Counted from the stretch's first letter, positions 2,094 to 23,545 are shown. The stretch is DNA of 64,000 nucleotides from Candidatus Omnitrophota bacterium (GCA_043797125.1 JAZDPX010000013.1:73180-137179), one strand, 5' to 3'. The notes: generated by a model not told the origin, from the letters alone. A program made the numbers and translations.

Positions 2094-2138
2094 AAATAAT
2101 ATGCCGCCTCCATTGGCATAGAGGCGGCCTTTAAAAAA

Positions 2139-2375: not shown

Positions 2376-2395
2376 ATTTCTCTCCTTCTTTAGCT

Positions 2396-2443: not shown

Positions 2444-2487
2444 ATTTTAAGTAGTAATGATATAACATCTGCTAAAAAAAGGCAAGC

Positions 2488-2585: not shown

Positions 2586-2586
2586 A

Positions 2587-3138: not shown

Positions 3139-3191
3139 CTCCTATCATTATCTTAGACAAACAAAACCGTCAATAAGTTCCTTTAGTTCTT

Positions 3192-3236
3192 CGGTAGCGG
3201 AGCCTTAAGGCTCCGCTACACTTGTGGATAACTCGC
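3192..3236 (+). repeat. Palindrome-only short copy of the MITE/REP-like family.
   Basis: gtagcggagccTTAAggctccgctac, with a compensatory gcc/ggc variant of the stem, followed by acttgtggataactc. Confidence 0.65.
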
Positions 3237-3245
3237 CTTATCCTT

Positions 3246-3713: not shown

Positions 3714-4239
3714 TTTTACCGCCCCTTTTGCCAAATTGAGTAACAAGCGCCTCCCTGGCCCTCTTAAGCCTTGAGCGCACGGTATTTATATTAATCTTTA
3801 AGGTGTCCGCTATCTCCTGATAGCTTAGGCCTTCTATGTTTCTTAACACTATGCAGGAACGCTGCTCGGGGTTAAGCGCGGCTAACAAAGATTTAATTAG
3901 CGCTTCGTTTGGCTGCTCTTTAGTTTCGGCTGCTATATCATCGGTAAGCTCTACGAGCTTGCCTGATTCCCTGGTTCTTTTTTTACATGTATTTATGGCG
4001 GTATTAACAGCTATTCTGTAGGCCCATGTTTTAAATGACGAGCGGAATTGGAAATTTTTAAGGTTCTTATATATGTTTACAAACACATCCTGCGTAATTT
4101 CTTTGGCGTCTTCGGCGTTATTAGCCATGCGAAAAGCAAGATTATACACAAAATCAGAGCTTACATCATATATGCTCTGAAAAGCGCTCATATTGCCCTC
4201 CGATGCCTCTTTTATAATGTTATCCGGTATATCCTGCAT
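3703..4239 (-). CDS. ECF-type RNA polymerase sigma-70 factor (RpoE-like).
   Basis: 178 aa. Region-2 motif DVFVNIYKNLKNFQFRSSFKTWAYRIAVNTAIN. Region-4 HTH SYQEIADTLKININTVRSRLKRAREAL. Confidence 0.85.
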   Translation of the reverse strand: MQDIPDNIIKEASEGNMSAFQSIYDVSSDFVYNLAFRMANNAEDAKEITQDVFVNIYKNLKNFQFRSSFKTWAYRIAVNTAINTCKKRTRESGKLVELTDDIAAETKEQPNEALIKSLLAALNPEQRSCIVLRNIEGLSYQEIADTLKININTVRSRLKRAREALVTQFGKRGGKNEL

Positions 4240-4254
4240 CTTTCCTCTATTATA

Positions 4255-4290
4255 TTAGACAGCCAAACCCTCTAAAAAGTTCCGGTTAAT
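4255..4290 (-). promoter_or_regulatory. Candidate ECF-type autoregulated promoter upstream of the sigma gene.
   Basis: Minus strand reads GGAACtttttagagggtttggcTGTCTaa, i.e. GGAAC-N17-(T/C)GTC, about 20 nt upstream of the RBS aggaaag-ATG. Resembles the ECF -35 AAC / -10 CGTC architecture. Confidence 0.35.
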
Positions 4291-4305
4291 TATACCCTGC
4301 AAAAC

Positions 4306-4334
4306 AAAAAACCCCAAGCTAAATTTGCTTGGGG
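4306..4334 (-). terminator. Rho-independent terminator downstream of the 528-aa secreted-protein gene.
   Basis: Minus strand: ccccaagc-aaattta-gcttgggg hairpin followed by uuuuuu. Confidence 0.6.
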
Positions 4335-4362
4335 TGAAAATAACAATTTTTCTTGTTAATGT

Positions 4363-5949: not shown

Positions 5950-6011
5950 TATAAAAGCGGCGCTTAGGGGAAATATGTTTTCCGCTTAAGGCTGTGGCTA
6001 TCCAAGCAGAT

Positions 6012-9000
6012 TTAAGCTGCTTGCTGCAGTGCCACAGCGACTTTTTCATCAACTCTTCTTGGCAGAATCTCTTCCTTTTGATCCTTTACTTTATCGAACG
6101 TCTGTTTCCTGTACTCTTTTAAAAGCTCGAGAAATTCACTATCATCTGAAAATTTAAAAACTTTAATGTTATTACCTGAGCTGTTTCCGTTTGCATCGTT
6201 GATCTTTTTCTTGATTATCTTTATAGCATCATATCCAACCCTTACTATATCCTTTTCGCTAGCTAATCTTCTCCATTGATCCCAATATATATCAACGCCT
6301 GACCATGCTGCGCCAAGCATCATAATATCGTAAGTTACAAAACTTAGGCCTGTGCCTAATTCTTTAAAATGTTCAATATATTTATCTAAACTCAATGTAT
6401 CTGAAGGAGTAGCTATATTGATACCGACCTGCAACCCGTCCTGGCCAGGTATCAGATTCATTTCTTTCAGTATGTGTTTCCAGGCGATAACAACTGCCCC
6501 TGCCTGAGTGCCTTGCAAATCAGTAATTTGCAAGCCAAGACGCTTCTTCTGCTGAACGCCTAACTTATCGCGCGCTTCTTTAAAAGCCTGCAATTCTAAA
6601 CGATTTATCGGATAGAAATCACTTATCGCCTTAGCTGCGCCTTTTAAGCCATAATCGGGGTTAGGATTGACATCTTCAACTAAGAATGAACCCACAAGCA
6701 TATTGCTAAGTTCAGCGCAATTAAGGCTGGTTGTCGTATGGATAACAAACTCTTCTGTATTATTCTTTAAAGTATCTAGAATGTGCTGCTTAAATACTTG
6801 CCTGATAAACTCATCCGCTGTTTTGTCTTCCTGTTTGAGTAATGAAGATATGTCATTTTTAAGTTGCTTGATATATTTTTCTCTTACGGCATCCTGCTTG
6901 GGAATCTCGATGCTTTTGTTTTTTGCAATATTATTACAAATATTTTCAAGTGAAGTTTTTATGCTATCTTCCGGAAGACCTTTTATCTTTTGCATAAACC
7001 TGCCGAGTAGATCCTTTTTTTCTGATTCATCAGAAATTTTAGAAATCTTGTCTGCTTCATCATATAAATCACCGATGTGTTTATTAAATATCTCGGCAAA
7101 ATTTTTCTCAAAATTTTTCTCATCGCTGCCGTAGGCGTGTATAAGCAAAGGATGAAACTTAAATGCGCCATATGCATCATTTGCGTTTTCCCTGACAGCC
7201 AATTCTTCGTTTACAGCAGGCTCAATCTCCGGTATCGGCAGCGATCTAGGCTCTACCTTTTCTCTTTTCACTTTTAAATCGCCTTCGTAAATTTTGCCTG
7301 CCTTATAGTCTATTGTAACAAATTTACCGTTTAATTTTGTTTTTTCTTTTCCTATATTTTTCGATATTACTTTTACCCTTGTCGGAATAATACTTTTGCC
7401 TGCGTCAAATACATCCCAGTCCTCCAGGCTGACGCCTGCATCTATGATTATAGCTTTTGCATACTGCAGATCATCCCAATCAATGCCCTGCCTCTCAAGG
7501 CCTTCTGTTGTATTATCCCAGGCCTTATTCCATGCCTTTAAGATGCCACTGCGCGAGTTTTCGTCGAAGTTCATATTTTCTAATTTGTTCAAAAATTTAT
7601 CTGAAGTAATACTGTATAAATTGGCCCACACATAAACATTTTCAGAAACTTCTCTCACCAAGCCTTTCTCCAGCAGGATATTAAAATCTTTCTCCTTCAT
7701 CGTTTCTAGAAACTCTTGTTTTTGCATTAACACAAAATTTTTAGTTAAAACAACTATTTTATTATATACACTCATAGTGCTCTGCGCGCTTTCCGGGCTT
7801 TGCAATTTCATAAATTCTTTTTTCTTGGTAAGCTCATCGCCTTTAAGGCCTTTTAAACTGTTTGGCACCAAATCATCCTTATCATCTATAAAAATAATTT
7901 CACCCTTAATAACGCCTTCGTCCTGCCTAATTTCGTCACCATTTGATTTTAAATCAATTAATATGTTTCTGTCTTTGGAAGGCACGTCTATTTCTTTCAT
8001 TGCGGACATAGCATCATAACGCACCATTGATGCGAGCAGCCTTACCGACATGGTACTTACCCCAAAAGAATTAAGCAAGGCCATTACTTTGCCTGCTAAA
8101 TCATAACGGCGTATTTTAACCAGATTTGTCACTAACTCACCGCATAATTTTGTAATTATTTCATGGTTATCAGCCTCTCTTACCACAGCCTCAATAAGCT
8201 GCAATATAGTATAGGCACCCTCAAAAGCCAATGGCAGGTTCTTATTGCTTTTATCATAGTAATATCCGCTTTTAATTATTTCATCTATTGCTTGTATCGC
8301 TGCCGGGTCTTCTATTTTTAGCTTTGTTTTGTAGTCCTCCCTGCAGGCTTTTGAGGCTATATAAGTATAGTCATTGGTCCCGAATGAGAAAAAGACGGAT
8401 TCTACTCCGTATTTTTTATATTTTTCCTTAATTTGATTCAGCCTTTCGCTTATTTCAGAGATCTGCATAGCGCAACTCGGCACTTCAATCATAATGCCAA
8501 CTTCTCTTGGAAGCATACCTTTTTTACCTGCCGCCATTTGCAAAGCCCTATCCATAATTTCAAGCTCATTGGCAAATCTTATAAACACATAAAAAAAAGA
8601 CTGGTTGCGCGTATTTTTGTGAGCGTCTATAACAGCCTCTATTAAAAAAGAAAGTACTTTCTGGTCGTAATGTTCGAGCTTAATGCCTCGCAAGCCGACA
8701 AATGGATTTTTCCCGGGCTCTGCAAATATGTCGCCTATCAAGCCTCTTATTTTATCCATAGCAAAATCGTATGACCTGGCGCTTGCTTTCTGCATTGAGC
8801 CGCAGCAAAAACCCATCAGATTATAAAAATTATAGAAATTCTTCGAAAGATATTCCTGCGCCGATGCGCACCCCCCTTCTTTAATCTTTTCTTCTGTCTT
8901 TTTTATAACATATTCATTAGCTTTCATTTTTTCAATTATATTGTAGTCATAATTAAAATTTCTTTCCATTTCCCCGTAATAGTGCGCAATGAGATTTGCT

Positions 9001-12000
9001 CCCTGCTCGCCCGGCACTTGCTGAATAAATTGCCATAGCCTTCCTTGTTCAGAAGATAGTTTGGGTTTATTGTTGCCATTTTCTTCTTCTCTTATTGCAT
9101 CAAGAACCGCCAAAAGCTTTATGCCACAATCTTTTGCATATTGCTTACCAACTATATTTTTAAATTTTTGCAAAGCATCTTTTTTAAGATATCTGTAGAT
9201 TTCATCGTTAACTTTTTCTACAAAATCGGCAAACAACCTATTTTCTTTGTCTTTTTTCGATTTTTTAGACTTGCTAATGATTTCTTTGGCCGATATTCTT
9301 TTCGGAGGCTGCATTTTGCCAGCTTCTATTTGCTTGATAAGGTCATATCCATAAGCATCTGTTGGATGAATCCCTAATTTTTCTCCCAGGAACTCCGCTC
9401 GTTCTAAGGCATTGCCATCTGAATCAGCAAGTATGTGGGGCGCATTCCGCTGCACTGCTTCTTCAGCAGCTATTACAAGGCCTATGCCCGGCACTTCGAA
9501 GTCATCTTCATCCACCCATTTTACTTTTCTAAGTCCTGGTTTAATTACAACGCGCTTAACTCCGGGGATTGCATATGGTTTTAATCTCAATTTAGTAAAT
9601 TTTATAGGAATTTTGTTGTTTGGATCTATTTTAAATAAACGCCCGCTATTCGCATCTATGGTTAAACCATCGCCGGTTTTTAATGCCCTGTTATCAAGCA
9701 CAATCGGCCGTGTGCCGGTGATAGCCGGAATACACCTTTCTCTGCAGAATATCGCTGCGTGGCAAGTATCTCCTCCGTGGATTGTGACCACCGCATCAAC
9801 AAGGTTCATTATAGGATCATGGTGAGGGTCTGCTTCAGACAAATAAAGCGCTACAGGCAGTTTCTTCTCTGATTTTTCCGTGTAGTCATCGGGATTAAAT
9901 CCTAAATCTCTTATAAGTTTTCTTTCGCCATCGGTAAATTTACCTCGCTTTAATCGCTTTATTTCATCTGCATGCCAGGCAACGCTTTTTGTTGTATCAA
10001 ACGCAAGAATATAAGCATGAGTCGCGTTCTCTCCCTTTGTACCCGTAGCTATAGGCTTAATTCCATGCTTCTCAATAAAGTCTTCATCTGTTTCTGTCCG
10101 CTTAAGCACAAAATCCACTTTTGTATATTCTGCTGTATATGGCCTTGCTTGCACATTATATAAGCTGAGTTTAACCATATTTTCATTGCTGCTTATTATT
10201 TGCTCTTTTTCCTCGCCGCTAAGCTCTATAATCTCGTCATTTCTCATGCCCAAAACATTGCCTTCTTTATCCAACGCATATATACTAATCTTAGAGCCTC
10301 CTTCTGCCTTAGGATCAATCTCGATAGCAAATTCCACATCTCTTGCGTCTTTATAAAAATTGGCTATTTTTGACACCATTATGGCAACTTTCGCGGCTTC
10401 AGAATCTGATATTGAAAACGCATCTTTATGCGAATCTGTAGTCAATATATTGCAGGTAAAACTATTGTCAATTAACGACCTTATAAGATAGCTTAGATTC
10501 TTAAAGTTTCTCTCGTCAACACCTATCTTGTCTAAAATGGTTTTCTTGTCCGTATCTGGCACATCGGGTCTTTCGTTATGCCATACCCCCTTGACCATTT
10601 TGATAAAAGAATCTATATAATCATTTCCTTGTTTTTTTCTGTTGAAATATTTCTTCAAATTATTTTTGCCTTTACTGGACTTTTCTTTGGTCATTTTAAC
10701 TAAATCATATGTACCATCAACTATCTTTTTCAGGTTATCTTCATCGATGCCGCTCGCTCTGGAAGCGTCCTGTACATAAAATTTTGATTTTATATATTCC
10801 ACAACCCGACCTTTTATCTCTGCGGGATTGGTGTTGTTATCTACCCCGGATTTAAACATATCGGCAATTTTTTCCGCTTCCATCTGCAAGCGCACTTTTT
10901 TATCATTATCTGTTTCGCCTGATTCTGGTATCAAATAAGAAATACCCTGTAAATCTTTTGCTAAGATACCTTTAATCTGCTTCTGCACTTCATCGTAGCT
11001 TATAGCGTCTTTAACCATCGAAGCTATGTTGCGAATTTTGGTTTCGTCAAGGCCTTCCTTTTGTCTTAAAAATTCAAAGGCATATTCTACATCCACCATT
11101 TGTATAAATTTATCTCCTTTTTCGGACTGAACGGTAAACCAGTTATCCCCATCCAGCGTAACCATGACAAATTTATCGCCTCTTACTTTACCGCCAACAA
11201 CATTCTCTCCATACCCATGGCTTATCTCAAAGCTTACAACATTTGCCTTTGTGCTGATGATTTCGCCTTTTTCATTACGATTAACAAAAGTATCATCATT
11301 CTCATACCAGGCCTTATATAAAGCCTGGGAAACGCCGGCGAATTTGGTAGCTGGATTCACTGTAAATGCCACTCCCGCTAAACAACTTTCTACCATGCGC
11401 ATAATGACTACGGACATTCCCACCAAATCAGGATGTACAAATTCTTTTGCAGTCTCCATTAATAATTCCAAACAATGGCTTATTTCAGCGTTCTTGGGTT
11501 CGTATTCCAATATTTCTATCATGGCCTTAATTAAATTTACCGAACCTGGGTTTTGATATTTGGTAAGCGTATCTGCTATTTTTCCAAGTTGTGAATTTTT
11601 ACTAGAATATTCACGAAGTTTCTCCATTAAATTATGATATACCCTTTGCGGTTCTGTTTCTCCAAAGCCCATAGTAGCGGCAAAAATTTGGAATATGTCT
11701 CCATCCCTATAGCTTATGGCTCTGTCTGTAAATAAACTGGCACAGCAAGCCTTCCATTTATCAAGTACGTTCTTAATGCCCCTGACATTAAGATAGGTAT
11801 CTGCCTGTCCGGCCTGAGAGCCGCTTGTAACAGGGAACCAGGATTGTATTTTGCTGTCCTCGCCTCTTATGCCTGAGCTTCTTTCCGCGACAGCGACAGG
11901 AGTTTTTTTGCCGGATAAATGCGCCAGAATATTCAGGTGTCTATACATCCTGATAATCTCTTCTTCTACCTCTTCGGGGATTTTTGCGTTCATTATGGCG

Positions 12001-13799
12001 TGGCGTATTCTATCTCCTATTACATTTCTTATCTGGTCGTCTGTAGCGTCCAAAGTAGCTAATTCTTCTATGGCCTTTCTCGCTTCCTCATTAGCTTTTA
12101 CTAATGCAAAATATGCTGTTGAGGTAGCATTAACACCCCAGGGGGTAGGCGCAACGCTTTCGGTCAGCGAAAGGCTTAAGCCCTTTCCTCCGGATAATTC
12201 AAACCCGCCTGATTTCAGGAATTCCTTATATCCTTCTTTGAGGTGTTTAAGTTTGTTTTCAAGTCGGTTTTTATAAACTAACGAATCAGGGTTTTTCTTT
12301 AATTCAGATTCAATTTTACTTATATCATTTCTATATTTCTCATCTTCTTTTTCAAATAATTCTTGATGCTGCCTCTGCTCTTTAAAAGTCAGGCAATAGC
12401 GTTTCCAGGCCGGTATTTTAGCGCGTTTTAAAAAATATACATAATCATCAAGAACAAGGTCTATCGCTCCTTTTCTTTCTTTTCTTATTTCTTCTGCGTT
12501 TTCCGCAATTGCCTCAAGCGTTATTCCGCCCAGCTCCTCCGCTAACTTAACTATGCTAGTTTTCCCGGGTTCTATTCTAACATCATTATTGCTATCTTTT
12601 TTGACAATGGCTATGGGCTGTGCATTAAAGTAGAGAACATAATATTTCTCATCGGGCTTAACCTCTTCTTTAAAATATTTCCCTAACCGCCCTTTAATAT
12701 CCTTGCTATCCTTTAAGTCTATAAGCTTTTCCATATAGCTGAATGGCAATTCTTCCTTAGAATCTTTTAACTTATAAGTGTCTGTGCCTAAAACCTGCTC
12801 TAGTACCTCTTCTTTCCTGATTGCGTCAACGGATAGGGGCTTATATTGAGACAATAAAGGGGCTCGTTCAATACGCTCTTCTCTTGACAGCGTTATTTTT
12901 TGCTCTTTTTCAAGCTTGAATACATTACAAATTGTTTCTTTAAGCTCACCAATTGCTATAATAAGAGAAACGGATTGAAAGGCTTCACCTTGCTCACTAG
13001 CTATATCCTTGGCATGCTCTATACAGGACAAAGCTTCTTCCATGTTCCCTGTTATATACAGCAGATATGCGATATTCATTTCTGATATGGCTTTTCTGTT
13101 AACGCCGTAAGCCTCGTTCCATCCGACCAGCAGGGTGTTTAAAATAGACTTTTCCCTTTGGGATAATTTTCCAAATACTTTCTCAAGCCCGATAGGAAAA
13201 CCCGTTATTTTTAATTGTATTGATATTTTTTCAAATTCTTCTGTTATGATAGGAACGGGATGCAAGATAAGCGGTATTTCTGTTATTAGTAATGTCCTGT
13301 CTCCTTTTCTTAATAACTCTTCTGCAAACTTATCCATAAGGTTGCATATATGCTGCTCGTAGTTAAGGCGCGTTGTTTCAGAAGTAATATTCTGCGCTAA
13401 CTGCATAGCCTTATGCACACAAGCTAAAGCTAATCCTAACTCCTCTGCTTCATATAAAATTTTTGCAATCCCTAAGCATATTTTAGTTTTTTTCTTATCT
13501 TGCGTGCTGGGTTTTTGCCATAATAGCAAATGCGCAGTTAGTTTTGAGGCTGCTGTTTCACTTAATTTCCCAACTACCTCCAGTAGGTCAACGGGGAATT
13601 CTGCTTGTTCTAGTATTCGCTTTGTAGCCTTATCGAGCTCATCACGGAGACTGTTATCTGTCTTAGCTGTAGAAACACCGCGCAGGGCATTATTTTTTGC
13701 GGTTTGATTTGCTGCAGGCAGGTAATGAAGATTTGCGCTTTGGCAGGTAAAAATAATAGTAAATAATAGTGTTATTGTTTTTTTGTAAATACGAGCCAT
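6012..13799 (-). CDS. Giant 2595-aa multidomain protein. An N-terminal signal/anchor plus TPR-like helical region is followed by a complete PEP-synthase/PPDK-type catalytic core: PPDK_N ATP-grasp nucleotide domain, phosphohistidine swivel domain and PEP-utilizing TIM barrel. The core domains are separated by very large insertions, and there is a C-terminal extension of about 600 aa.
   Basis: Uninterrupted 7.8-kb ORF.
- PPDK_N motifs (about nt 11300-12210): SGGKGLSLSLTES...WGVNATSTAYFALV, VAVAERSSGIRGED...SGSQAGQADTYLNVRG, SVVIMRMVESCLAGVAFTVNPATK, VVSFEISHGYGENVVGG.
- Phosphohistidine motif TIHGGDTCHAAIFCRERCIPAITGT at about nt 9745-9800.
- TIM-barrel motifs IMIEVPSCAMQISE and FFSFGTNDYTYIA at about nt 8380-8520.
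- N-terminus MARIYKKTITLLFTIIFTCQSA is signal/anchor-like. Confidence 0.75.
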   Translation of the reverse strand: MARIYKKTITLLFTIIFTCQSANLHYLPAANQTAKNNALRGVSTAKTDNSLRDELDKATKRILEQAEFPVDLLEVVGKLSETAASKLTAHLLLWQKPSTQDKKKTKICLGIAKILYEAEELGLALACVHKAMQLAQNITSETTRLNYEQHICNLMDKFAEELLRKGDRTLLITEIPLILHPVPIITEEFEKISIQLKITGFPIGLEKVFGKLSQREKSILNTLLVGWNEAYGVNRKAISEMNIAYLLYITGNMEEALSCIEHAKDIASEQGEAFQSVSLIIAIGELKETICNVFKLEKEQKITLSREERIERAPLLSQYKPLSVDAIRKEEVLEQVLGTDTYKLKDSKEELPFSYMEKLIDLKDSKDIKGRLGKYFKEEVKPDEKYYVLYFNAQPIAIVKKDSNNDVRIEPGKTSIVKLAEELGGITLEAIAENAEEIRKERKGAIDLVLDDYVYFLKRAKIPAWKRYCLTFKEQRQHQELFEKEDEKYRNDISKIESELKKNPDSLVYKNRLENKLKHLKEGYKEFLKSGGFELSGGKGLSLSLTESVAPTPWGVNATSTAYFALVKANEEARKAIEELATLDATDDQIRNVIGDRIRHAIMNAKIPEEVEEEIIRMYRHLNILAHLSGKKTPVAVAERSSGIRGEDSKIQSWFPVTSGSQAGQADTYLNVRGIKNVLDKWKACCASLFTDRAISYRDGDIFQIFAATMGFGETEPQRVYHNLMEKLREYSSKNSQLGKIADTLTKYQNPGSVNLIKAMIEILEYEPKNAEISHCLELLMETAKEFVHPDLVGMSVVIMRMVESCLAGVAFTVNPATKFAGVSQALYKAWYENDDTFVNRNEKGEIISTKANVVSFEISHGYGENVVGGKVRGDKFVMVTLDGDNWFTVQSEKGDKFIQMVDVEYAFEFLRQKEGLDETKIRNIASMVKDAISYDEVQKQIKGILAKDLQGISYLIPESGETDNDKKVRLQMEAEKIADMFKSGVDNNTNPAEIKGRVVEYIKSKFYVQDASRASGIDEDNLKKIVDGTYDLVKMTKEKSSKGKNNLKKYFNRKKQGNDYIDSFIKMVKGVWHNERPDVPDTDKKTILDKIGVDERNFKNLSYLIRSLIDNSFTCNILTTDSHKDAFSISDSEAAKVAIMVSKIANFYKDARDVEFAIEIDPKAEGGSKISIYALDKEGNVLGMRNDEIIELSGEEKEQIISSNENMVKLSLYNVQARPYTAEYTKVDFVLKRTETDEDFIEKHGIKPIATGTKGENATHAYILAFDTTKSVAWHADEIKRLKRGKFTDGERKLIRDLGFNPDDYTEKSEKKLPVALYLSEADPHHDPIMNLVDAVVTIHGGDTCHAAIFCRERCIPAITGTRPIVLDNRALKTGDGLTIDANSGRLFKIDPNNKIPIKFTKLRLKPYAIPGVKRVVIKPGLRKVKWVDEDDFEVPGIGLVIAAEEAVQRNAPHILADSDGNALERAEFLGEKLGIHPTDAYGYDLIKQIEAGKMQPPKRISAKEIISKSKKSKKDKENRLFADFVEKVNDEIYRYLKKDALQKFKNIVGKQYAKDCGIKLLAVLDAIREEENGNNKPKLSSEQGRLWQFIQQVPGEQGANLIAHYYGEMERNFNYDYNIIEKMKANEYVIKKTEEKIKEGGCASAQEYLSKNFYNFYNLMGFCCGSMQKASARSYDFAMDKIRGLIGDIFAEPGKNPFVGLRGIKLEHYDQKVLSFLIEAVIDAHKNTRNQSFFYVFIRFANELEIMDRALQMAAGKKGMLPREVGIMIEVPSCAMQISEISERLNQIKEKYKKYGVESVFFSFGTNDYTYIASKACREDYKTKLKIEDPAAIQAIDEIIKSGYYYDKSNKNLPLAFEGAYTILQLIEAVVREADNHEIITKLCGELVTNLVKIRRYDLAGKVMALLNSFGVSTMSVRLLASMVRYDAMSAMKEIDVPSKDRNILIDLKSNGDEIRQDEGVIKGEIIFIDDKDDLVPNSLKGLKGDELTKKKEFMKLQSPESAQSTMSVYNKIVVLTKNFVLMQKQEFLETMKEKDFNILLEKGLVREVSENVYVWANLYSITSDKFLNKLENMNFDENSRSGILKAWNKAWDNTTEGLERQGIDWDDLQYAKAIIIDAGVSLEDWDVFDAGKSIIPTRVKVISKNIGKEKTKLNGKFVTIDYKAGKIYEGDLKVKREKVEPRSLPIPEIEPAVNEELAVRENANDAYGAFKFHPLLIHAYGSDEKNFEKNFAEIFNKHIGDLYDEADKISKISDESEKKDLLGRFMQKIKGLPEDSIKTSLENICNNIAKNKSIEIPKQDAVREKYIKQLKNDISSLLKQEDKTADEFIRQVFKQHILDTLKNNTEEFVIHTTTSLNCAELSNMLVGSFLVEDVNPNPDYGLKGAAKAISDFYPINRLELQAFKEARDKLGVQQKKRLGLQITDLQGTQAGAVVIAWKHILKEMNLIPGQDGLQVGINIATPSDTLSLDKYIEHFKELGTGLSFVTYDIMMLGAAWSGVDIYWDQWRRLASEKDIVRVGYDAIKIIKKKINDANGNSSGNNIKVFKFSDDSEFLELLKEYRKQTFDKVKDQKEEILPRRVDEKVAVALQQAA

Positions 13800-13905
13800 A
13801 GGTTTCTCTAAAGTGAAATATGTTAAGATGATATAAATGGTTAAAAAAAGTACTTAATATTATACACAAAAAAAATTCCTGTGTCAATCAAAATATTTAC
13901 GTGTG

Positions 13906-14826
13906 TTATGGCAATAATTTTACGCTAAGCAGATTAAATAGGTAGCCTGTAAAGATAATTCCAAGGGTGGTTATGCCGAAAAATATAATTACAAGCTTAA
14001 GTTTCATAGCCCGCCTTAGTATTACTGCTTCCGGAAGGCTTAAGGCAGATACAGCCATCATAAAGGCAAGGGCGGTGCCTAAGGGGACGCCTTTTCTAAA
14101 TAGCGCGACGGCAATGGGCACGATAGCGGCGCAGCTTCCGTACATTGGAACGCCTAAAAGCACTGCTATGGGCACTGAAAACGGGCCAGTCTTTGCGATT
14201 GCCCCCTGGATGGTTTCTTTTGGCACATAATTATGTATAACGGCGCCTATACCAACGCCTATTAATATCCAGGGCCATAACCTTTTTAAAATTAATTTCG
14301 CCTCGCCTACGCCAAAAAGAATTCTGTCCTTTATTGAGGTGAATTGGAGCAGCTTTTCTGTTTCGGTTTTTATCGGAAGAAAATCCCTGTCAATGTATTT
14401 ATCTAATTTCATTTTACCTAATATAAGCCCGACAAACACGCCTAAAAAAATTCCGCTTAAGACATAAAACGCGGTTATCTTCCAGCCGAAAAAACCAAGC
14501 ATCAGGACGACCAGATATTCATTGACTAAGGGCGAGGTTATCAGGAATGAAAAGGTAACGCCCAAAGGCACCCCTGTTTTTAGAAAGCCCAAAAATATCG
14601 GAATTGATGAACATGAGCAAAACGGGGTTATGGCGCCGAACATCGAGGCGTATATATTCGCGAAAAACTTTTTTTTGGCAAGCCAGGAACGCACCTTGCC
14701 CTGTGATAAATAGCTTCGCAGGAATCCCACAAAGGATATCATCACAAAAAGCAAAAGCATTATCTTTACGGAGTCGTAGACAAAAAATTGCAGCAATCCA
14801 ACTAATCCATTTTTATGATCAATCAT
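13906..14826 (-). CDS. Polytopic membrane permease, DUF318/ArsP-like family with a Cys-X-Cys motif.
   Basis: 306 aa, multiple TM segments. ITPFCSCSSIP motif characteristic of DUF318/ArsP-type permeases. Located directly downstream of the HME-RND pump. Confidence 0.55.
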   Translation of the reverse strand: MIDHKNGLVGLLQFFVYDSVKIMLLLFVMISFVGFLRSYLSQGKVRSWLAKKKFFANIYASMFGAITPFCSCSSIPIFLGFLKTGVPLGVTFSFLITSPLVNEYLVVLMLGFFGWKITAFYVLSGIFLGVFVGLILGKMKLDKYIDRDFLPIKTETEKLLQFTSIKDRILFGVGEAKLILKRLWPWILIGVGIGAVIHNYVPKETIQGAIAKTGPFSVPIAVLLGVPMYGSCAAIVPIAVALFRKGVPLGTALAFMMAVSALSLPEAVILRRAMKLKLVIIFFGITTLGIIFTGYLFNLLSVKLLP

Positions 14827-14844
14827 ATCAAGCCCTTTAGCTTT

Positions 14845-14940
14845 GGTAATAGTTCAGCTCTGGGAAGTTTTCACGACGTAGCGCAGGCTTAAGCCTGCGC
14901 TACGTCCGAGTCGAGATACTTACAATGACTGAACTGTTAC
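14845..14940 (+). repeat. Palindromic MITE/REP-like element, full-length reference copy.
   Basis: ggtaatagttcagctctgggaagttttcacgacgtagcgcaggcTTAAgcctgcgctacgtccgagtcgagatacttacaatgactgaactgttac. The ends are imperfect inverted repeats (gtaatagttcag... / ...ctgaactgttac) flanking a 15-bp perfect stem. Confidence 0.85.
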
Positions 14941-17900
14941 TAGCTTTGAAGCAGGCGGCGTTCCTGGTACCATGAATAAAGGCAGGGCACGATAAACCAG
15001 GTTATCATCTCTATAACCATACCGCCCAACGACGGAATAGCCATGGGCTGCATAACTTCCGAACCGCTTCCTTTTATAAACATAATCGGTAAAAGCGCGA
15101 CAATGGTTGTAATGGTCGTAAGAAACGCCGGGCGTATCCTGCCTAAGCCCGCGTAGACTGTGGCCTCGACCACGTCTTTTTTTGATTTTATCTTATCTTT
15201 TCTCTCCTTAAAAACATCGTCCAGATATGTAGTCATTAAAATTCCGTCATCAACAGCCACTCCGAAGAGCGCGATAAAACCGACCCAAACGGCGATGGAA
15301 AAATTATACCCTGAAAACGCCAAAAGCCATATTCCGCCAGATAAGGTAACCGGTATTGCCGTAAATATAAACAGGCTTTTTACTACGGATCTAAAATTCA
15401 TGTAAATAATCATGAAGTTCAAAAGAAGGCTTATCGGCACCAAAACCAGCAGTTTCTTTTTTGCCCTCACCTGATTTTCAAACTGGCCTGACCATTCAAG
15501 AAAATAATTTTCCGGAAGTTTGAGCTTCTCCCTTACAACGCGCGATGCCTCCTCGACAAATCCCACCATATCACGGCCACGCACGTTCATAAGCACGTAT
15601 GCCCTTAGCAGGCCGTTTTCCGAATTTATCATCGCCGGGCCTGTTACAAAATATATATCCGCAAGCTGCGTTATCGGAATCTGCTGGCCGTCCGAAGTCG
15701 GCACAAGTACGCGCCTTAAGGCATCCGGGGTATCGCGCAGTTCCCTCGGGTAGCGCACCCTGACAGGATAGCGCTCTCTGCCCTCCAGCGTGGTTGTTAT
15801 ATTTTCGCCGCCAATACCCATCTCGATAACATCCTGCACGTCGCTTATGCTTAATCCATAGCGGGCAATCTGGTCGCGTTTAATCTTAAATTCAATATAA
15901 GGTTTGCCGACTATCTTTTCCGAATATAAATCCGCCGCTCCCCTGACGCCCTTAAGGATATTCTCGACCTCCTGGGCAATATCCTGAATTTTATTTAAGT
16001 CCGGGCCGAATACCTTTACCCCGACAGATGTCCTTATGCCCGTAGCCAGCATGTCAATTCTGTTAATTATCGGCTGGGTCCAGATATTTGAAACACCCGG
16101 TATCTGAAGGCTTGAGTTCATTTCCTGGATAAGCTTGTCCTTGGTCATGCCTTTACGCCATAGGTTTTTTGGTTTAAGCGTAATTGTTGTCTCAAACATT
16201 TCTATCGGGGCAGGATCTGTGGCGGTCTCCGCGCGCCCGAGTTTTCCTACCACCATCTCAACTTCGGGAAACTTACTTATTACCTCATCCTGAATCTTTA
16301 TTATGCGGTGCGCTTCGGTAAGCGATACGGCAGGCTGCATAACCGGCATAAACAAAATACTTCCTTCATCAAGCGGCGGCATAAACTCCCTGCCTATAAA
16401 CGCGGCCGCAACCAAAGAGCCTGTTAGAACTAAGGCGGGTATCAAGAGAAATTTTTTTCGGTTAGCAAGCACCCAGCGTAGTATTTTTTCATAATATCTG
16501 TGGAGCGCGCTAACAAGAGGGTTTTCCTCGGGTTCGCGCAGGCGGCCCCTTAAGCCAAAGAAGCACAAAACCGGGGTAAATGTTAAAGCTACGGTAATCG
16601 ACGCTAAAAGGGCTAATGTCTTTGTCCAGGCAAGCGGATGAAAAAGCTTGCCCTCTTGCGCTTCAAGCGCGAAGACAGGGAAAAATGAGACTACTGTCGT
16701 AAGAACAGCTGTTAAAACAGCGCTGCCTACTTCAGAAGCAGCGCCGAAGATAACCTCAAGCCTTGTTGTTATGCCTTTTTTTATGTCTTGCGCATTGAGA
16801 ATAAGCCTTCTATAGGAATTTTCAGTCATAATTATTCCCATGTCAACAAGGGTTCCTATGGCAATGGCTATGCCTGACAACGACATAATATTGGAGTCTA
16901 TACCAAGATAATACATTGCAATGAACGCTATCAAAACCGAAAATGGAAGAGCTATGCATATTATGAAACCCGCAAATATGTGGGCCATAAACGGGACAAC
17001 CACTGCCATAGTGATAATAATCTCAAGGATCAGCGCCTCTTTTAAAGTCCCTATTGTGCGATGAATTAAACCTGTGCGGTCGTAAAATGGTATTATCTTT
17101 ATATCGGAAGGCAGGCCTGCCTGTAACTGTTTTATTTTCTCCTTAACGCCGTGTATTACCTGCATCGCGTTCTGGCCGTAGCGCATAACAACTACGCCGC
17201 CTACAACTTCTTTTCCGGCCTTATCCAATATGCCTCTTCTGAATTCAGGGCCAAGCTGCACAGAAGCTATGCTTTTAAGATATATAGGGGTGCCTTCTTT
17301 ATACCCAACAGCGATATTTTCTATATCCTCGACGGATTTGATAAATCCCAGGCCTCTTACGATATATTCCATTGCCCCTGACTCTATAACTTTCGCGCCT
17401 ATATCGATATTTGACTTTTTAACCGCTTCAAGTGTTTCCCGCAGGCTTATGTTCTGGCTTGACATCTTGTTGGGGTCAACGTCTATCTGATACTGCCTTA
17501 AAAATCCTCCGACTGTTGCAACCTCTGACACGCCTTCAACAGAATTAAGCTGATAACGGATAAACCAGTCCTGCATGCTCCTTAATTCGTCTAATGACCT
17601 GTTTTCCCCTTCTACCGTATACCAGAAGACCTGGCCCAGGCCTGTCGCATCCGGCCCAAGAACCGGCATTATACCTTGCGGAAGTTTTGTTGAGGCAATA
17701 TTAAGTTTTTCCAGAACGCGGGAACGCGCCCAATAGTAATCTATCTTATCGTGGAATATCAGGTATATTTCCGAAAATCCGAACGCTGACGCGGCTCTGA
17801 TGGTTTTAACTCCGGGAACGCCTTTAAGAGATATTGAAAGCGGGTATGTAACCTGGTCTTCCACATCTTGCGCGGAACGGCCCGGCCATTCGGTATAAAC

Positions 17901-18044
17901 AATGACCTGTTTTTCTCCTATATCCGGAATTGCGTCAATAGGAACGTTGGTAAGCGCCCATAGCCCCCAGAAAAAAACAGCCGCATATATTATGAAAACT
18001 ATAAGCGGAGTCTTCAAGCAATACGAAATTAATCTGTTTATCAT
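14940..18044 (-). CDS. cusA: Heavy-metal efflux RND transporter, CusA/CzcA (HME-RND) family.
   Basis: 1034 aa, 12-TM RND architecture. N-terminal region LKTPLIVFIIYAAVFFWGLWALTNVPIDAIPDIGEKQVIVYTEWPGRSAQDVEDQVTYPL is typical of CusA/CzcA. Confidence 0.85.
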   Translation of the reverse strand: MINRLISYCLKTPLIVFIIYAAVFFWGLWALTNVPIDAIPDIGEKQVIVYTEWPGRSAQDVEDQVTYPLSISLKGVPGVKTIRAASAFGFSEIYLIFHDKIDYYWARSRVLEKLNIASTKLPQGIMPVLGPDATGLGQVFWYTVEGENRSLDELRSMQDWFIRYQLNSVEGVSEVATVGGFLRQYQIDVDPNKMSSQNISLRETLEAVKKSNIDIGAKVIESGAMEYIVRGLGFIKSVEDIENIAVGYKEGTPIYLKSIASVQLGPEFRRGILDKAGKEVVGGVVVMRYGQNAMQVIHGVKEKIKQLQAGLPSDIKIIPFYDRTGLIHRTIGTLKEALILEIIITMAVVVPFMAHIFAGFIICIALPFSVLIAFIAMYYLGIDSNIMSLSGIAIAIGTLVDMGIIMTENSYRRLILNAQDIKKGITTRLEVIFGAASEVGSAVLTAVLTTVVSFFPVFALEAQEGKLFHPLAWTKTLALLASITVALTFTPVLCFFGLRGRLREPEENPLVSALHRYYEKILRWVLANRKKFLLIPALVLTGSLVAAAFIGREFMPPLDEGSILFMPVMQPAVSLTEAHRIIKIQDEVISKFPEVEMVVGKLGRAETATDPAPIEMFETTITLKPKNLWRKGMTKDKLIQEMNSSLQIPGVSNIWTQPIINRIDMLATGIRTSVGVKVFGPDLNKIQDIAQEVENILKGVRGAADLYSEKIVGKPYIEFKIKRDQIARYGLSISDVQDVIEMGIGGENITTTLEGRERYPVRVRYPRELRDTPDALRRVLVPTSDGQQIPITQLADIYFVTGPAMINSENGLLRAYVLMNVRGRDMVGFVEEASRVVREKLKLPENYFLEWSGQFENQVRAKKKLLVLVPISLLLNFMIIYMNFRSVVKSLFIFTAIPVTLSGGIWLLAFSGYNFSIAVWVGFIALFGVAVDDGILMTTYLDDVFKERKDKIKSKKDVVEATVYAGLGRIRPAFLTTITTIVALLPIMFIKGSGSEVMQPMAIPSLGGMVIEMITWFIVPCLYSWYQERRLLQS

Positions 18045-18045
18045 A

Positions 18046-19419
18046 TTAATGGTGAATATGTTTTGTTTCTATCTTTGGCTCTTCTTCGGCAGGCGTTTCT
18101 AATCCTGCCTCTATTTCCTGGGCGCCTGACCACAACAAGCTCGCTCCACCTGTAAGCTGGCTTTGGGAATCTATAAGAAAATTTCCTTTTGTAACAATTA
18201 CATCGCCTTCGCTTAACCCGCTTAAGACAGGGTAGAATTGAGACGCTATGCCCTCTTCTTCTGCCGATGCAAGTGAACCAATCTTTATTTCTCTTCCTAC
18301 AAATTCGCCTTCTTTGGCTTGAATATATACAATTTTTCGAACGCCCGTGTCTAACACAGCGTCTTTGGGCACAGCCAAAATCATACCATCTTCATTTTGT
18401 GTTACTGTATATATATCTTCTATAACAACATTCACATACATCTGGGGTTTCAGTTTTAGATCCGGGTTATCCACTTCTATTCTTACCCGCGCTGAACGGG
18501 TCTTTGGGTCTATGACAGGATTTATTGACACTACTGCTCCTTTGAATTCCTCGCCGGGATATGCATCGGTCGTAATTTTCGCTTCCTGGCGCGGCTTAAC
18601 CCAGCCGAGTTCATACTCATATATCTGGGCATACGCCCACATTTTATCTTGCGGCAATATTAAACTCTGGTCGGCAGTAGTCTGGTTTTGCAGGCTTGCT
18701 ATATATTCATCGCTTAAGCCAAGCAATTTAAGCCTGGTCTTTGACCTGTTTAAAATGTCATCGGCGCGCGCGATTACATCCGGGTCCGGGCTATTTCCAA
18801 CTTTTTCCCTGGTCTGAACCGCGGTTAGAAATTCCTCTTGCGCAACAGCAAGTTCCGGATCATAAGCTATGGTTCCTGACGCACGTATGAGCTTTGACAA
18901 ACTTCTCTTTTTTATCGGCTCTGTTTTTATGCCTGCAAGATCGACCTGCTGCTTATTAAGGCTGACCCTCGATACCGCTGTTTCGCCATTCTGAACTCTT
19001 AGTTTCGCCGCCTGTTCAGGCTTTATCTTTTTAAGGGGTTTTTTGCATACGGGGCAGCTCATTTGCTTATCCGCTGTGATTACAAATGAATGGCCGCCGC
19101 ATATGCATTGCGCGTCTTTTATGCCTTCGTCGCAATGCTTACAATGGCCTTGTTCTGTCACGCCGCAGCCATAATAATCCTCATTAGCCTGTACCGCTTC
19201 ATCCTGCTGCGGCTCTGCTGTTTCATAAACAGGGATTAAGTCCATGCCGCAGATGGGGCATTTGCCTTTTTTTTCAGCGTGCACGCTTGGGTGCATAGAA
19301 CATGTCCAATATGAAATCTTTTGCTCGGTGCTAGTTTTTTCTACCGCTTGTGCCACGCAAACTGTCGCAGTTAAAAGTGCTGTTAATACGACAGCCGCTA
19401 AAATTATTTTGAGTCTCAT
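18046..19419 (-). CDS. cusB: RND efflux periplasmic adaptor (CusB/CzcB-like) with N-terminal Cys/His-rich heavy-metal-binding domains.
   Basis: 457 aa. Signal peptide. YWTCSMHPSVHAEKKGKCPICGMDL is a TCSMHP...CPICGM heavy-metal-binding module. A second cluster is CKHCDEG...CICGGH...CPVCKKPL. Membrane-fusion beta-barrel/lipoyl segments follow. Confidence 0.8.
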   Translation of the reverse strand: MRLKIILAAVVLTALLTATVCVAQAVEKTSTEQKISYWTCSMHPSVHAEKKGKCPICGMDLIPVYETAEPQQDEAVQANEDYYGCGVTEQGHCKHCDEGIKDAQCICGGHSFVITADKQMSCPVCKKPLKKIKPEQAAKLRVQNGETAVSRVSLNKQQVDLAGIKTEPIKKRSLSKLIRASGTIAYDPELAVAQEEFLTAVQTREKVGNSPDPDVIARADDILNRSKTRLKLLGLSDEYIASLQNQTTADQSLILPQDKMWAYAQIYEYELGWVKPRQEAKITTDAYPGEEFKGAVVSINPVIDPKTRSARVRIEVDNPDLKLKPQMYVNVVIEDIYTVTQNEDGMILAVPKDAVLDTGVRKIVYIQAKEGEFVGREIKIGSLASAEEEGIASQFYPVLSGLSEGDVIVTKGNFLIDSQSQLTGGASLLWSGAQEIEAGLETPAEEEPKIETKHIHH

Positions 19420-19432
19420 TTATGCGCCTCCA

Positions 19433-20692
19433 TTATAAGTCAATGCCCACAGCCATTTCCAGCTCTGCTAATGCCGCCTCATGCTCAACTGTCGCCATAT
19501 AATAATCTAATTTAAATTCCAGAAGCGTTCTTTGGCTGTCAAGAAGGTTTAAGAAATCTATGGTGTTTGCCTCATAACCAACAGATGCGGATTTAAACGC
19601 CTGCTCAGCCTGCGGAATAAAAGATGTCTTATACAGAGTTGCCAATTTTTTATACGCCTCGGCTTTTGAATAAGCGTCCTTCACTTCAAGCAGGACCGTG
19701 TTCTTTTTATCCTGATACTCTGCCTCCATTGCTTTAAGCTCATTTTTCATCTGGCTTACATTAAAACTTTCTTTCTGCCAAAACCATAATGGTATGCTTA
19801 TACCCACCATGCCTGCCCAGTCTGTAAGGCGCCCGTCCCGCTCCATGCTTTCGTATTTTACCGTAAAATCAGGCAGATATTCCTGCTTTGCCAAAGAATA
19901 GATTTTCTTCGCCCTTTCAACTGCCAGATGCGACGCCATAAGCTCGGGCCTTTTTTCAAGCGTTATTTTGTTTAATTCATCAAGGGTATATTTAAGCTCT
20001 GTTTCGCCGCTTGAGGCAATGGGGCCTAGCTCAAAGCTCGGGTCCTTGTTTAAAAGTATATCCAGCCGCGCCTGCTTTGCCTGCCTTTTCTGCTCAAGCA
20101 TCAGCAGTTCATTATCCATACGCGCTATCTCTACGTGCGCTTTCAATGCGTCCTGCTGGCTTGTTTTACCAAGCGAGTACTGCGCGGATGCGGAAGAGGC
20201 CAACTGTTCCAAGAGCAGTTTGTTTTCCTTTGTTATGTCAATTGATTTATATACAAACGCAAGTTCCGAATATAACGACTTGACGCTTGAAATTATCCGC
20301 CTTTCTTTTTCCCTATATTCGCTATATGCTATCTGGGCTTCTTTCTGCGCTATCTGCGCCCTTGTCAAAAGCTTTGAAAGAAACGGCACATCCTGGGACA
20401 CCGCGTATGTGCGCATCGGAGCGGTATCGCCTTCCATAACAGCATCCATACTCGCGTTTATCTTATCATACTTAAATTCAAACTCCGGGTTGTTTAAACT
20501 TGATGCCTGGGGTATCTTATTCTTCGCTGCCTCATATCTATTCTTTGATGCTATAATTTCTGGATTGTTCCGGACGGCTTCGTCGATGAGTGTAGCTAAA
20601 TTATCTGGTTCATCGGCATACAGATGCAGAGTAGAAAAAACTGATGCCAGCAATGCCAGCAAACAAATAAATTTTATCTTTGACTTTTCCAT
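19433..20692 (-). CDS. Outer membrane efflux protein (TolC/CusC-like OMF).
   Basis: 419 aa. Signal peptide MEKSKIKFICLLALLASVFSTLHLYA. Two-repeat TolC-like coiled-coil architecture. Operon position upstream of the adaptor and RND pump. Confidence 0.75.
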   Translation of the reverse strand: MEKSKIKFICLLALLASVFSTLHLYADEPDNLATLIDEAVRNNPEIIASKNRYEAAKNKIPQASSLNNPEFEFKYDKINASMDAVMEGDTAPMRTYAVSQDVPFLSKLLTRAQIAQKEAQIAYSEYREKERRIISSVKSLYSELAFVYKSIDITKENKLLLEQLASSASAQYSLGKTSQQDALKAHVEIARMDNELLMLEQKRQAKQARLDILLNKDPSFELGPIASSGETELKYTLDELNKITLEKRPELMASHLAVERAKKIYSLAKQEYLPDFTVKYESMERDGRLTDWAGMVGISIPLWFWQKESFNVSQMKNELKAMEAEYQDKKNTVLLEVKDAYSKAEAYKKLATLYKTSFIPQAEQAFKSASVGYEANTIDFLNLLDSQRTLLEFKLDYYMATVEHEAALAELEMAVGIDL

Positions 20693-20750
20693 TTTTCGGA
20701 TTAATTATAGCACGAAACTCGCTGTTCGTACAAATATTATCGAAAACAAT

Positions 20751-20784
20751 AATAGTAGGGCAGGCTTAAGCCTGCCCTACTATT
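20751..20784 (+). repeat. Palindrome-only short copy of the MITE/REP-like family.
   Basis: aatagtagggcaggcTTAAgcctgccctactatt. The stem variant gggcagg/cctgccc preserves pairing by compensatory change. Confidence 0.65.
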
Positions 20785-20810
20785 ACATAACATGTGCCTT
20801 ACGCTAATTA

Positions 20811-22955: not shown

Positions 22956-22990
22956 TATGTTTTCTCCGGTTTATATAGCTATTAAAAGTT

Positions 22991-23090
22991 TCACAGATAA
23001 TCACAGATTAAAAGAAACAGACTATCGCAGATTTTTTAAAATATATCTGTGATCATCTTGTATCTTTTCATCTGCGATCATCTGTGTAAT
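22991..23090 (+). repeat. Repeat family B, copy 1 (~95 nt), built from periodic ATCTG(T/C)GAT(C/T) boxes. Lies in the cysK promoter region, 3' of the Rrf2 gene.
   Basis: tcacagataatcacagattaaaagaaacagactatcgcagatttt...atatctgtgatcatcttgtatcttttcatctgcgatcatctgtgtaa. About 85% identical to the reverse complement of 54076-54172. Confidence 0.75.
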
Positions 23091-23101: not shown

Positions 23102-23545
23102 TCATATAACATACATATGCGGGGTTTTAAGTTTTTTCTTGTGCCTTTTAACCATTTCCTCTAAAGTTACTGATTCTAAACTTTTTAATATTTTATCGCC
23201 TAATTCTTTCCATATATCGCGCGTTACGCAAATATCTATTCTATCACAAACAGCGGGCGAATCAATACATTCAACAGGTGACAATGAACCTTCAAGCGTC
23301 AAAATTATTTCCTTGAGCGTTATTTTGGATGGCGCCTTTGCCAGCGTGTAGCCGCCATGCGCGCCCCTGCTTGATTTTACAAGCCCAATAGCTTTAAGCG
23401 GCGGCACAAGATGCTCTAAATATCCTTCGGAAATATTCTGTCTTTTGGCAATATCTTTCAGCAGAACATTGCCGTTGCCATAATTAAGCGCCAGTTCCAG
23501 CATTAATCTTGCGCCATATCTTCCTTTTGTTGAAAGCCTCATCAT
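23102..23545 (-). CDS. Rrf2-family transcriptional regulator (IscR/CymR-like, three-Cys cluster ligand set).
   Basis: 147 aa. N-terminal wHTH MMRLSTKGRYGARLMLELALNYGNGNVLLKDIAKRQNISEGYLEHLV. Cys triad CIDSPAVCDRIDIC. Confidence 0.85.
   Translation of the reverse strand: MMRLSTKGRYGARLMLELALNYGNGNVLLKDIAKRQNISEGYLEHLVPPLKAIGLVKSSRGAHGGYTLAKAPSKITLKEIILTLEGSLSPVECIDSPAVCDRIDICVTRDIWKELGDKILKSLESVTLEEMVKRHKKKLKTPHMYVI

Follow-up and report, generated by a model that had tools for sequence, protein, structure and literature searches.

Nine copies of a short palindromic element are found in a 64,000-nt stretch of DNA from a Candidatus Omnitrophota bacterium (GCA_043797125.1 JAZDPX010000013.1:73180-137179), which is referred to here, over its whole length, as the window. 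The 26-nt palindrome common to the nine copies is probably a repetitive extragenic palindrome (REP) of the GTAG-tagged superfamily, and five of the nine appear to lie at the apex of a separate, 95-bp miniature transposable element with inverted repeats (MITE). An earlier note on this sequence had described a single "nine-copy family" of MITE/REP-like, non-autonomous elements with a hairpin under constraint. The copies were confirmed, but the single family resolves into two nested things, namely a widespread 26-nt REP and a 95-bp MITE that looks lineage-specific. The rest of that description is supported, and in relatives the palindromes flank genes for REP-associated tyrosine transposases (RAYTs). 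The REP family is new, in Omnitrophota, where a literature search found no published account of REP/RAYT elements; the kind of element is well known.

The palindromic core in the window and in other genomes

REPs of the published GTAG superfamily possess stems of 6–13 bp and short loops, and are divided into subfamilies that differ by complementary changes in the stem (PMC2817692, PMC3733652). Nesting in longer palindromes, uni-directional REPs near upstream stop codons, and intragenic REPs have also been described for them (PMC3733652). In the Omnitrophota element, the core consists of a G+C-rich stem of 7 bp around a TTAA loop, together with a GTAG tag, the last being present in all nine copies of the window. 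When perfect 7-bp stems with a TTAA loop were collected from the window and from the loci of other genomes described below, 98 of the 102 had GTAG on at least one side, and in 92 GTAG and its complement, CTAC, were present at the two ends and hence paired. The tag is thus found on both strands, giving a two-fold symmetric unit that is unusual for REPs, and since the core is symmetric its strand orientation is undefined. No variation is seen at the GTAG/CTAC ends, at an A8:T19 pair, or in the TTAA centre. Folded as DNA, the core hairpin is predicted at -12.5 to -13.3 kcal/mol, its z-scores ranging from -5.4 to -6.8.

The copies of the window were identified with GTAGSGSAGSCTTAAGSCTSCSCTAC, a degenerate pattern in which G or C was independently allowed at six variable positions. 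Exactly nine matches were obtained (at 1294, 2400, 3194, 14878, 20755, 34997, 47392, 55480, and 56848), and 100 shuffles gave none. All nine are perfect 26-nt palindromes of the form GTAG-N7-TTAA-N7-CTAC, and the same sites, with nothing further, were returned by a generic search for GTAG...CTAC palindromes and by a search for perfect palindromes centred on TTAA. Half-site matches in the window number 18, or 9 × 2, and this half-site search detected no solo half-sites or decayed copies there. Five copies (c1–c5) have ~95 nt in common and the other four (p1–p4) only the core, so that the earlier count of five full-length and four core-only copies was upheld. A perfect stem of 15 bp had also been reported; the stems are indeed perfect, but their length is not uniform, being 13–17 bp in the full-length copies and 11–17 bp over all nine. 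The four stem variants listed in the earlier note were all found, each of them fully complementary.

The core-only copies are p1 (2400–2425, minus strand; GTAGCGCAGGC...), p2 (3194–3219, minus strand; GTAGCGGAGCC...), p3 (20755–20780, no strand assigned; GTAGGGCAGGC...), and p4 (55480–55505, no strand assigned). Copy-specific palindromic extensions are seen at p3 (5 bp, TAATA/TATTA) and p4 (4 bp, AGAT/ATCT). Under a simple gene model, ~92% of the window is coding, and all nine cores fall within the ~8% non-coding part, in gaps between co-directional genes of the minus strand, on which 43 of the 46 genes reside. The intergenic, co-directional setting given previously for every copy is therefore correct. 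In six of the nine, 26–53 nt separate the core from the upstream gene's stop codon. Assembly artefact or collapse, an alternative that presupposed identical flanks, is excluded because each copy has its own flanks and its own neighbouring genes. Arrangement as REP doublets forming hairpins (REPINs) or bacterial interspersed mosaic elements (BIMEs) is likewise ruled out, as all nine are singletons and the closest pair is 794 bp apart.

The core is found well beyond this genome. When one genome per species was scanned with GTAGSGSAGSCTTAAGSCTSCSCTAC, at least 62 loci (numbered here with the prefix L) were obtained from at least 18 assemblies, ~15 of which are labelled Candidatus Omnitrophota or Omnitrophica. 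The remaining assemblies are Planctomycetia- and Spirochaetes-labelled bins, one unclassified bin, and Syntrophomonas zehnderi. One related metagenome-assembled genome (MAG) possesses at least 25 copies. The 62 loci exclude the window, to which their nucleotide identity is nowhere above ~74%; several window proteins find their best matches among them at 44–76% identity, in line with an Omnitrophota origin of the window. At one locus (L002), a REP follows a homologue of a phosphoenolpyruvate (PEP) carboxykinase gene, and the same place in the window is without a REP. At another (L022), two REP copies (2334–2359 and 3027–3052) are located in frame within a 335-aa open reading frame (ORF) for a GT2 glycosyltransferase, each encoding GGLSLPY.

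Covariation in the stem was assessed with the pattern GTAG-N7-TTAA-N7-CTAC, in which the 14 stem positions are free, so that complementarity is not favoured. The search covered 529 kb, for which well below one match is expected by chance, and it gave 96 matches comprising 20 distinct sequences; 92 of the matches were perfectly complementary. Over the 20 distinct sequences, paired cells amount to 97.7%, as opposed to 78% in shuffles and 33–45% when the partners are slid. Changes on both sides are seen at six of the seven free pairs (36 cells), and one-sided (G-T) changes in 0 of 220 cells. The compensatory stem changes that had been noticed among the window copies are thus real, and they are stronger across genomes than within the window.

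The 95-bp element around five of the cores

The full-length copies are c1 (1262–1356, plus strand, 95 bp), c2 (14846–14940, plus strand), c3 (34960–35054, minus strand, i.e., inverted), c4 (47360–47454, plus strand), and c5 (~56827–56912, plus strand), so that four of the five are in one orientation. Their REP cores are located at 1294–1319, 14878–14903, 34997–35022, 47392–47417, and 56848–56873, respectively. The core at the apex of c1 (GTAGCGGAGGC TTAA GCCTCCGCTAC) has a 13-bp perfect stem and that of c4 a 17-bp perfect stem, while the left arm of c5 is shortened and degenerate. Terminal inverted repeats (TIRs) of 13–15 nt (GTAATRGTTCAGC) are present at both ends of c1–c4; those of c2, for instance, are GTAATAGTTCAGC / GCTGAACTGTTAC-like. 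The TIRs had been described as imperfect, and they are quite markedly so, with 4–8 mismatches in 15 positions and the full 8 in c4.

A test for target-site duplications (TSDs), suggested in the earlier note, found them at two full-length copies. For this test, the ends of the MITE were taken as GTAAT...(A/G)TTAC. Copy c2 is bordered by TAGCTTTG on both sides (14838–14845 and 14941–14948), an 8/8 match at zero offset. The octamers that border c3 (34952–34959 and 35055–35062; TCTCCTTA / TCTCCTTG, compared as CAAGGAGA / TAAGGAGA) match at 7/8, also at zero offset. Elsewhere, c1 scores 5/8, and c4 and c5 have no TSD. At random window positions, with any of 16 offset combinations accepted, a match of 8/8 is reached at a frequency of 0.0006 and one of 7/8 at 0.009. 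No two copies are more alike than c2 and c3, whose arms are 84–92% identical, and they are for this reason considered the youngest, the older c1, c4, and c5 having lost their TSDs.

Insertion of the MITE is precisely between stop codons and ribosome-binding sites (RBSs) inside operons. For example, the stop codon of an AcrB-like gene (14940–14942) spans the junction of c2 and its TSD and is now TAG, the G of which is derived from the element. When c2 and one copy of its TSD are removed, by reading of the sequence, the site becomes ...CAA AGC TAA AGGGCTTGAT ATG, with a TAA stop at the same codon, AAAGGG as the RBS, 10 nt, and then ATG. The duplicated octamer of c3 is the RBS of the downstream gene (AAGGAGA on the minus strand). 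Copy c1 occupies the interval from the stop codon of a DsbD_TM gene (1359–2093, minus strand) to the RBS of an AhpC/TSA gene (749–1243, minus strand); a homologous pair of genes in L010 (44–49% identity) is separated by an empty junction of ~15 nt. Finally, the left end of c5 abuts the ATG (56824–56826) of a tRNA-U5-methyltransferase-like gene (55552–56826).

The core and the remainder of the element differ markedly in their conservation. Across the five MITE copies, the 26-nt core has no arm mismatches and varies only at one compensated G/C pair, whereas the MITE arms are 50–92% identical between copies and the mismatches of the TIRs are uncompensated. The G/C switch in the core does not track the phylogeny of the arms. 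Since even c2 and c3, which are closest to each other, differ at this position, the switch either occurred more than once or cores were exchanged between copies.

IS200/IS605 elements make neither TIRs nor TSDs (PMC2817692). The 95-bp element is for that reason attributed to a MITE moved by some DDE-type transposase, and as such it would be distinct from the REP that it carries. The two also appear to differ in distribution, the MITE looking lineage-specific and the REP common to many species. A pattern search of the window and the 62 loci found the TIR nowhere outside the five window elements, tblastn and blastn matched the arms in the window but at no point in the 62 loci, and metagenome scans with the right arm and with the extended core gave no match to the full-length form.

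Probable RAYT partners and the readings weighed

RAYT genes are flanked by REPs (PMC2817692), and such an arrangement is found in relatives of the present genome. The earlier note had proposed that an IS200/IS605-type enzyme be sought elsewhere, and relatives do carry a Y1 enzyme, a RAYT, flanked by a palindrome of the same type. In loci where two palindromes are 560–600 bp apart, a 163–168-aa ORF lies between them, and tblastn identified a RAYT gene in seven of the 62 loci listed. Two RAYTs, those of L004 and L034, were scanned against protein families. With the NCBIfam equivalog NF047646 ("REP-associated tyrosine transposase"), which has a cutoff of 80 bits, they score 117 and 131 bits, and both match Pfam Y1_Tnp as well. 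Among solved structures, E. coli TnpA-REP is the one that the L034 protein matches best (4ER8, E = 8e-11). HUH histidines and the catalytic Tyr are invariant in all seven RAYTs.

At each of the seven loci, the RAYT gene is flanked on both sides by GTAG-tagged REPs with a G+C-rich stem and a short A/T loop. For six of the RAYTs these REPs are double-tagged, in the order GTAG-stem-CTTAAG-stem-CTAC. The seventh, from Syntrophomonas (L051), is flanked by classical single-tag dimers, and one dimer half is nearly the Omnitrophota unit. Stems of the flanking REPs vary by species and by side, and include GGGGAGCC, GGGGACCC, GGTGACCC, CGCAGGC, CCGACCC, and TGTAGCC. In four species (L004, L021, L031, and L057), the RAYT gene directly follows the same Mg-chelatase/ComM-like gene, a shared position that fits the pattern of a vertically inherited, domesticated gene. 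In L034, a ~35-nt direct repeat (aaaaagataaaatttagtgaacgaaaaac) at ~2400–2450 and 3040–3080 brackets the REP-RAYT-REP unit, suggesting that the cassette was duplicated or inserted there as a whole.

As stated in the earlier note, the window itself encodes no transposase. Neither tblastn nor a relaxed search detected a RAYT in it, the ComM-like synteny anchor is absent from it, and none of its 47 Pfam-scanned gene models has a transposase domain. A RAYT between the close core-only copies at 2400 and 3194 was considered and ruled out, the gene at that place being one for an LTXXQ/Spy-like periplasmic protein. The RAYT of this genome, if still present, must reside outside the 64-kb window.

By analogy with E. 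coli TnpA-REP and IS608, a RAYT would act on single-stranded DNA at the replication fork, where it would bind the hairpin together with its GTAG tag and then cut and rejoin the strand, seeding or replacing REP copies. The substrates would be only those copies that are still able to fold. Template switching may be a second source of the observed symmetry, since it can copy a change in one arm to the other and so convert a single change to a double one in one step. Selection for folding and templated repair would together keep the arms complementary as the sequence of the stem varies. In E. coli, structural work has shown how the RAYT recognises its hairpin on single-stranded DNA (PMC3479197). 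The constraint on the Omnitrophota core is most simply explained at the DNA level, by RAYT recognition of a single-stranded hairpin and/or by hairpin-templated correction, because Watson–Crick symmetry is strict and without G-T pairs, the sequence is conserved across species, and the palindrome is associated with RAYTs. The claim of selection on the hairpin thus holds as far as constraint is concerned; the role in RNA stability or termination offered with it is plausible by analogy. The hairpins have no T-run.

Many copies of the REP are accompanied by a perfect DnaA-box 9-mer, TTATNCACA (mostly TTATCCACA), which is found beside 16 of 77 copies in at least nine genomes, with a background of 0.08 sites per kb. 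It is situated 2–3 nt, or rarely 5 nt, outside the tag and points at it. In addition to the four loci in which RAYT follows the ComM-like gene, the TTATCCACA-type 9-mer is seen at L006, L007, L011, L015, L024, L028, L032, L050, L052, and L060. Within the window, TGTGGATAA at 3223–3231, which reads TTATCCACA on the minus strand, lies at a distance of 3 nt from the p2 core, an arrangement identical to that of RAYT-flanking REPs in other species, and p1 has a one-mismatch DnaA-box-like 9-mer (TGTAGATAA) at 2429–2437. The 9-mer is taken to be part of the mobile unit; alternatively, it could have a DnaA-related function.

The palindrome itself often continues past the core. A contiguous extra palindrome of at least 3 bp is present in 43% of copies, compared to an expected 1.6%. 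Extensions reach 14 bp and their sequence is copy-specific; examples are found in the window at 20750–20785, 55476–55509, and 47386–47423, and elsewhere at L005 6355, L028 2340, L004 3932, and L037 1096. In the JBDRJN assembly, which represents another Omnitrophota species, the REP is located amid a different, ~150-nt repeat with copy-specific outer inverted repeats (L012 1368, L017 4403, L019 6323, L023 864, L038 1960, L047 1873, and L059 860), 22 nt long in L012 and 16 nt in L017. The extensions join the core without a gap, and for this reason outward growth through fold-back or template switching is tentatively preferred to insertion into a hairpin loop.

Several points weigh against the assignment of the core to a REP/RAYT system and of the longer element to a MITE. 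There is no RAYT in the window, and the RAYT link consequently rests on other genomes. In the 24 described GTAG families, an unpaired tag is confined to one end (PMC3733652), unlike the paired tag found here at both ends. At L004, L021, L031, and L057, TTATCCACA is direct, not inverted, on the two sides of the RAYT gene. An autonomous insertion sequence (IS) with the TIR of the MITE was found neither in the window nor in the 62 loci, and the metagenome scans lack the full-length form, as noted above. Lastly, RAYT activity, transcription of the hairpins, and an effect on mRNA are predictions made from sequence.

A hybrid scheme, which is regarded as rather unlikely, goes further than the preferred assignment. 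It is motivated by the extension of 43% of copies and by the central position of the REP in longer repeats in two genomes. REP/RAYT activity or replication fold-back at the hairpin would build longer palindromes, with REP hairpins placed or extended at the apex of inverted repeats. The core would be re-templated, and would thus stay perfect while the MITE arms decay. The TTATCCACA 9-mer would be a working part, serving as a RAYT cleavage or guide region, or as a DnaA site, in which case binding of DnaA might help to extrude the hairpin or might titrate DnaA. On this scheme, two unrelated classes of transposase could act on the 95-bp element.

E. coli REPs stabilise upstream mRNA (reviewed in PMC3733652), and a comparable effect is conceivable here. 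Since the Omnitrophota REPs are inside operons and close behind stop codons, they are probably transcribed as RNA hairpins, and by analogy with E. coli REPs the hairpins probably impede 3′-exonucleases, or else serve as partial attenuators or read-through dampers. It is a different and unlikely proposition that the hairpins are host RNA elements in the first place, i.e., operon-internal terminators, attenuators, or mRNA-stabilising 3′ hairpins that are shaped by selection on RNA and are not mobile DNA. The E. coli precedent, the placement of six cores just past stop codons within runs of co-directional genes, and the considerable stability of the hairpins as RNA (-21 to -28 kcal/mol; the full elements have z-scores of -5 to -8) all agree with it. 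However, no T-run is found at any copy. None of the four copies within 1–20000 received a terminator-like call and the flanks of the other five are without a T-run, although canonical hairpin-plus-T-run sites exist elsewhere in the window (e.g., 4335–4311); an intrinsic (Rho-independent) terminator is ruled out on this ground. A scan of the whole window at Rfam gathering thresholds gave no matches, and E-value mode at 14800–14990 and 2380–2660 gave only sub-threshold, chance-level ones. Selection on RNA also sits poorly with the conservation of sequence, beyond structure, over at least 18 assemblies, with the lack of G-U-type pairs in 220 cells, and with a fully symmetric element that has no strand preference. 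The palindrome, moreover, flanks RAYT genes and in L022 is in frame within a coding gene. The REPs may still have been exapted secondarily for a role in RNA.

The nine copies are very unlikely to be one MITE family in which the core-only copies are eroded remnants and the RAYT link seen elsewhere is irrelevant. Long and short copies do have an identical type of 26-nt core, and c5 demonstrates that arms can be lost or shortened. Nevertheless, traces of arms or TIRs are absent beside the four short copies, and two of these (at 2400 and 3194) bear the TTATCCACA-type extension that is found at RAYT genes elsewhere. It is the short form that is widespread, with the TIR in none of the 62 loci and the arms matched in the window only, and the core is conserved far better than the arms. 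Least probable of all is a duplex site for a dimeric protein (nucleoid, partition, or regulatory) or a CTTAAG-centred site related to restriction-modification, which would account for the perfect two-fold symmetry, the invariant ends, A8:T19 pair, and centre, and the absence of G-T pairs, but which predicts a single half-site consensus instead of 16 perfect palindromes that change in both halves, and does not square with the consistent flanking of RAYT genes or with unrelated, copy-specific extensions in 43% of copies.

Other features of the window and comparison with known systems

Additional repeats and genes were observed in the window. An exact tandem duplication of a 47-nt unit, with a period of 49, is located at 2488–2583, directly 3′ of the LTXXQ/Spy-like gene (2587–3138, minus strand). 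The units contain nested inverted repeats (CCCTCGC...GCGAGGG and GAAATCC...GGATTTC) and have no match in Rfam, and a hammerhead-like reading of the repeat was dropped for want of Rfam support. Two blocks of ~100 nt, at 22989–23088 and 54080–54172, are mutually inverted copies (88–91%) with ATCTGTGAT/ATCACAGAT-like motifs. The former lies between a gene for an Rrf2-family regulator (23102–23545) and a cysteine/homocysteine-synthesis operon, the latter upstream of a gene for a GTP-dependent PEP carboxykinase (52139–54064; Pfam), and both are candidate operator arrays of the Rrf2 regulator. A 99-nt direct repeat (57033–57131 and 59044–59142, 81% identical) has one non-coding copy and another that overlaps a zinc-ribbon gene model (58899–59390); an AIR-synthase-related gene (57832–58875) is a neighbour. 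An unusually large fusion, an ORF of 2595 aa with pyruvate-phosphate-dikinase/PEP-utilising domains and TPR repeats, occupies 6012–13799 on the minus strand. No tRNA or tmRNA was found in the window. GC skew is negative on the plus strand throughout, which, together with the 43 of 46 genes on the minus strand, places the window within one replichore, with its genes co-oriented with replication.

If the assignment of the core is correct, the REP/RAYT partnership also takes in Candidatus Omnitrophota, an uncultivated phylum whose cells are very small. Maintenance of the palindrome over many species, and of a syntenic RAYT gene in at least four, supports the view that these are old, vertically inherited residents and not selfish newcomers. 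The 95-bp element serves as a natural control, in that its transposon arms decay while the 26-nt REP stays paired. In practice, the hairpins could be used as a lineage marker, are worth masking or labelling in Omnitrophota MAGs, and mark operon-internal sites of interest for metatranscriptomes. The present understanding of REPs is unchanged and the finding is of modest interest, its most noteworthy parts being the double tag, the DnaA-box 9-mer, and the growing palindromes.

The closest known systems are the REP/BIME and TnpA-REP (4ER8) of E. coli, the SMAG elements of Stenotrophomonas, and the REPs and REPINs of Pseudomonas (PMC3733652, PMC2817692, PMC3479197). The Omnitrophota core resembles GTAG REPs in being a short, G+C-rich stem-loop, with a 7-bp stem, a 4-nt loop, and a GTAG tag in this case. 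It also resembles them in forming stem subfamilies through complementary changes, and in being extragenic, among unidirectional genes and near the upstream stop. As in other REP/RAYT systems, the RAYT genes of the relatives are flanked by the repeat, their products have the HUH and Tyr motifs, and the cutoff of the NCBIfam RAYT equivalog is passed. In contrast to GTAG REPs, the tag is base-paired and at both ends in Omnitrophota, giving a perfect 26-nt palindrome, and in contrast to REPINs and BIMEs, the window copies are singletons. Unlike known REPs, many Omnitrophota copies have a fixed TTATCCACA 2–3 nt outside the tag, in direct orientation around RAYT.

REPs within longer palindromes are known for a few families (PMC3733652), and the REP is similarly central in a repeated inverted-repeat sequence here. 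The outer element differs from that of known embedded REPs in having TIRs and 8-bp TSDs, the hallmarks of a transposed MITE. A further difference is that 43% of copies have contiguous, copy-specific extensions with no common "target palindrome". The 95-bp element is in turn comparable to the operon MITEs of bacteria, such as Correia/NEMIS of Neisseria: it is ~95 bp in length, non-coding, multi-copy, and bounded by TIRs and a TSD of fixed length, it folds into a long hairpin, and it resides between co-transcribed genes. Unlike Correia/NEMIS, it has at its centre a REP that remains perfect as the arms decay, and an autonomous partner is not known. IS66-family elements have inverted repeats that start with GTAAGCG and 8-bp direct repeats (PMC11946415). 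The 8-bp TSD is shared with the MITE, whose terminus, GTAATRG or GTAACAG, has only GTAA in common with them, so IS66 may be taken as a lead only to the parent type. Rickettsia palindromic elements and intragenic REPs (PMC3733652) are brought to mind by the in-frame copies of L022 only, the nine copies of the window being intergenic.

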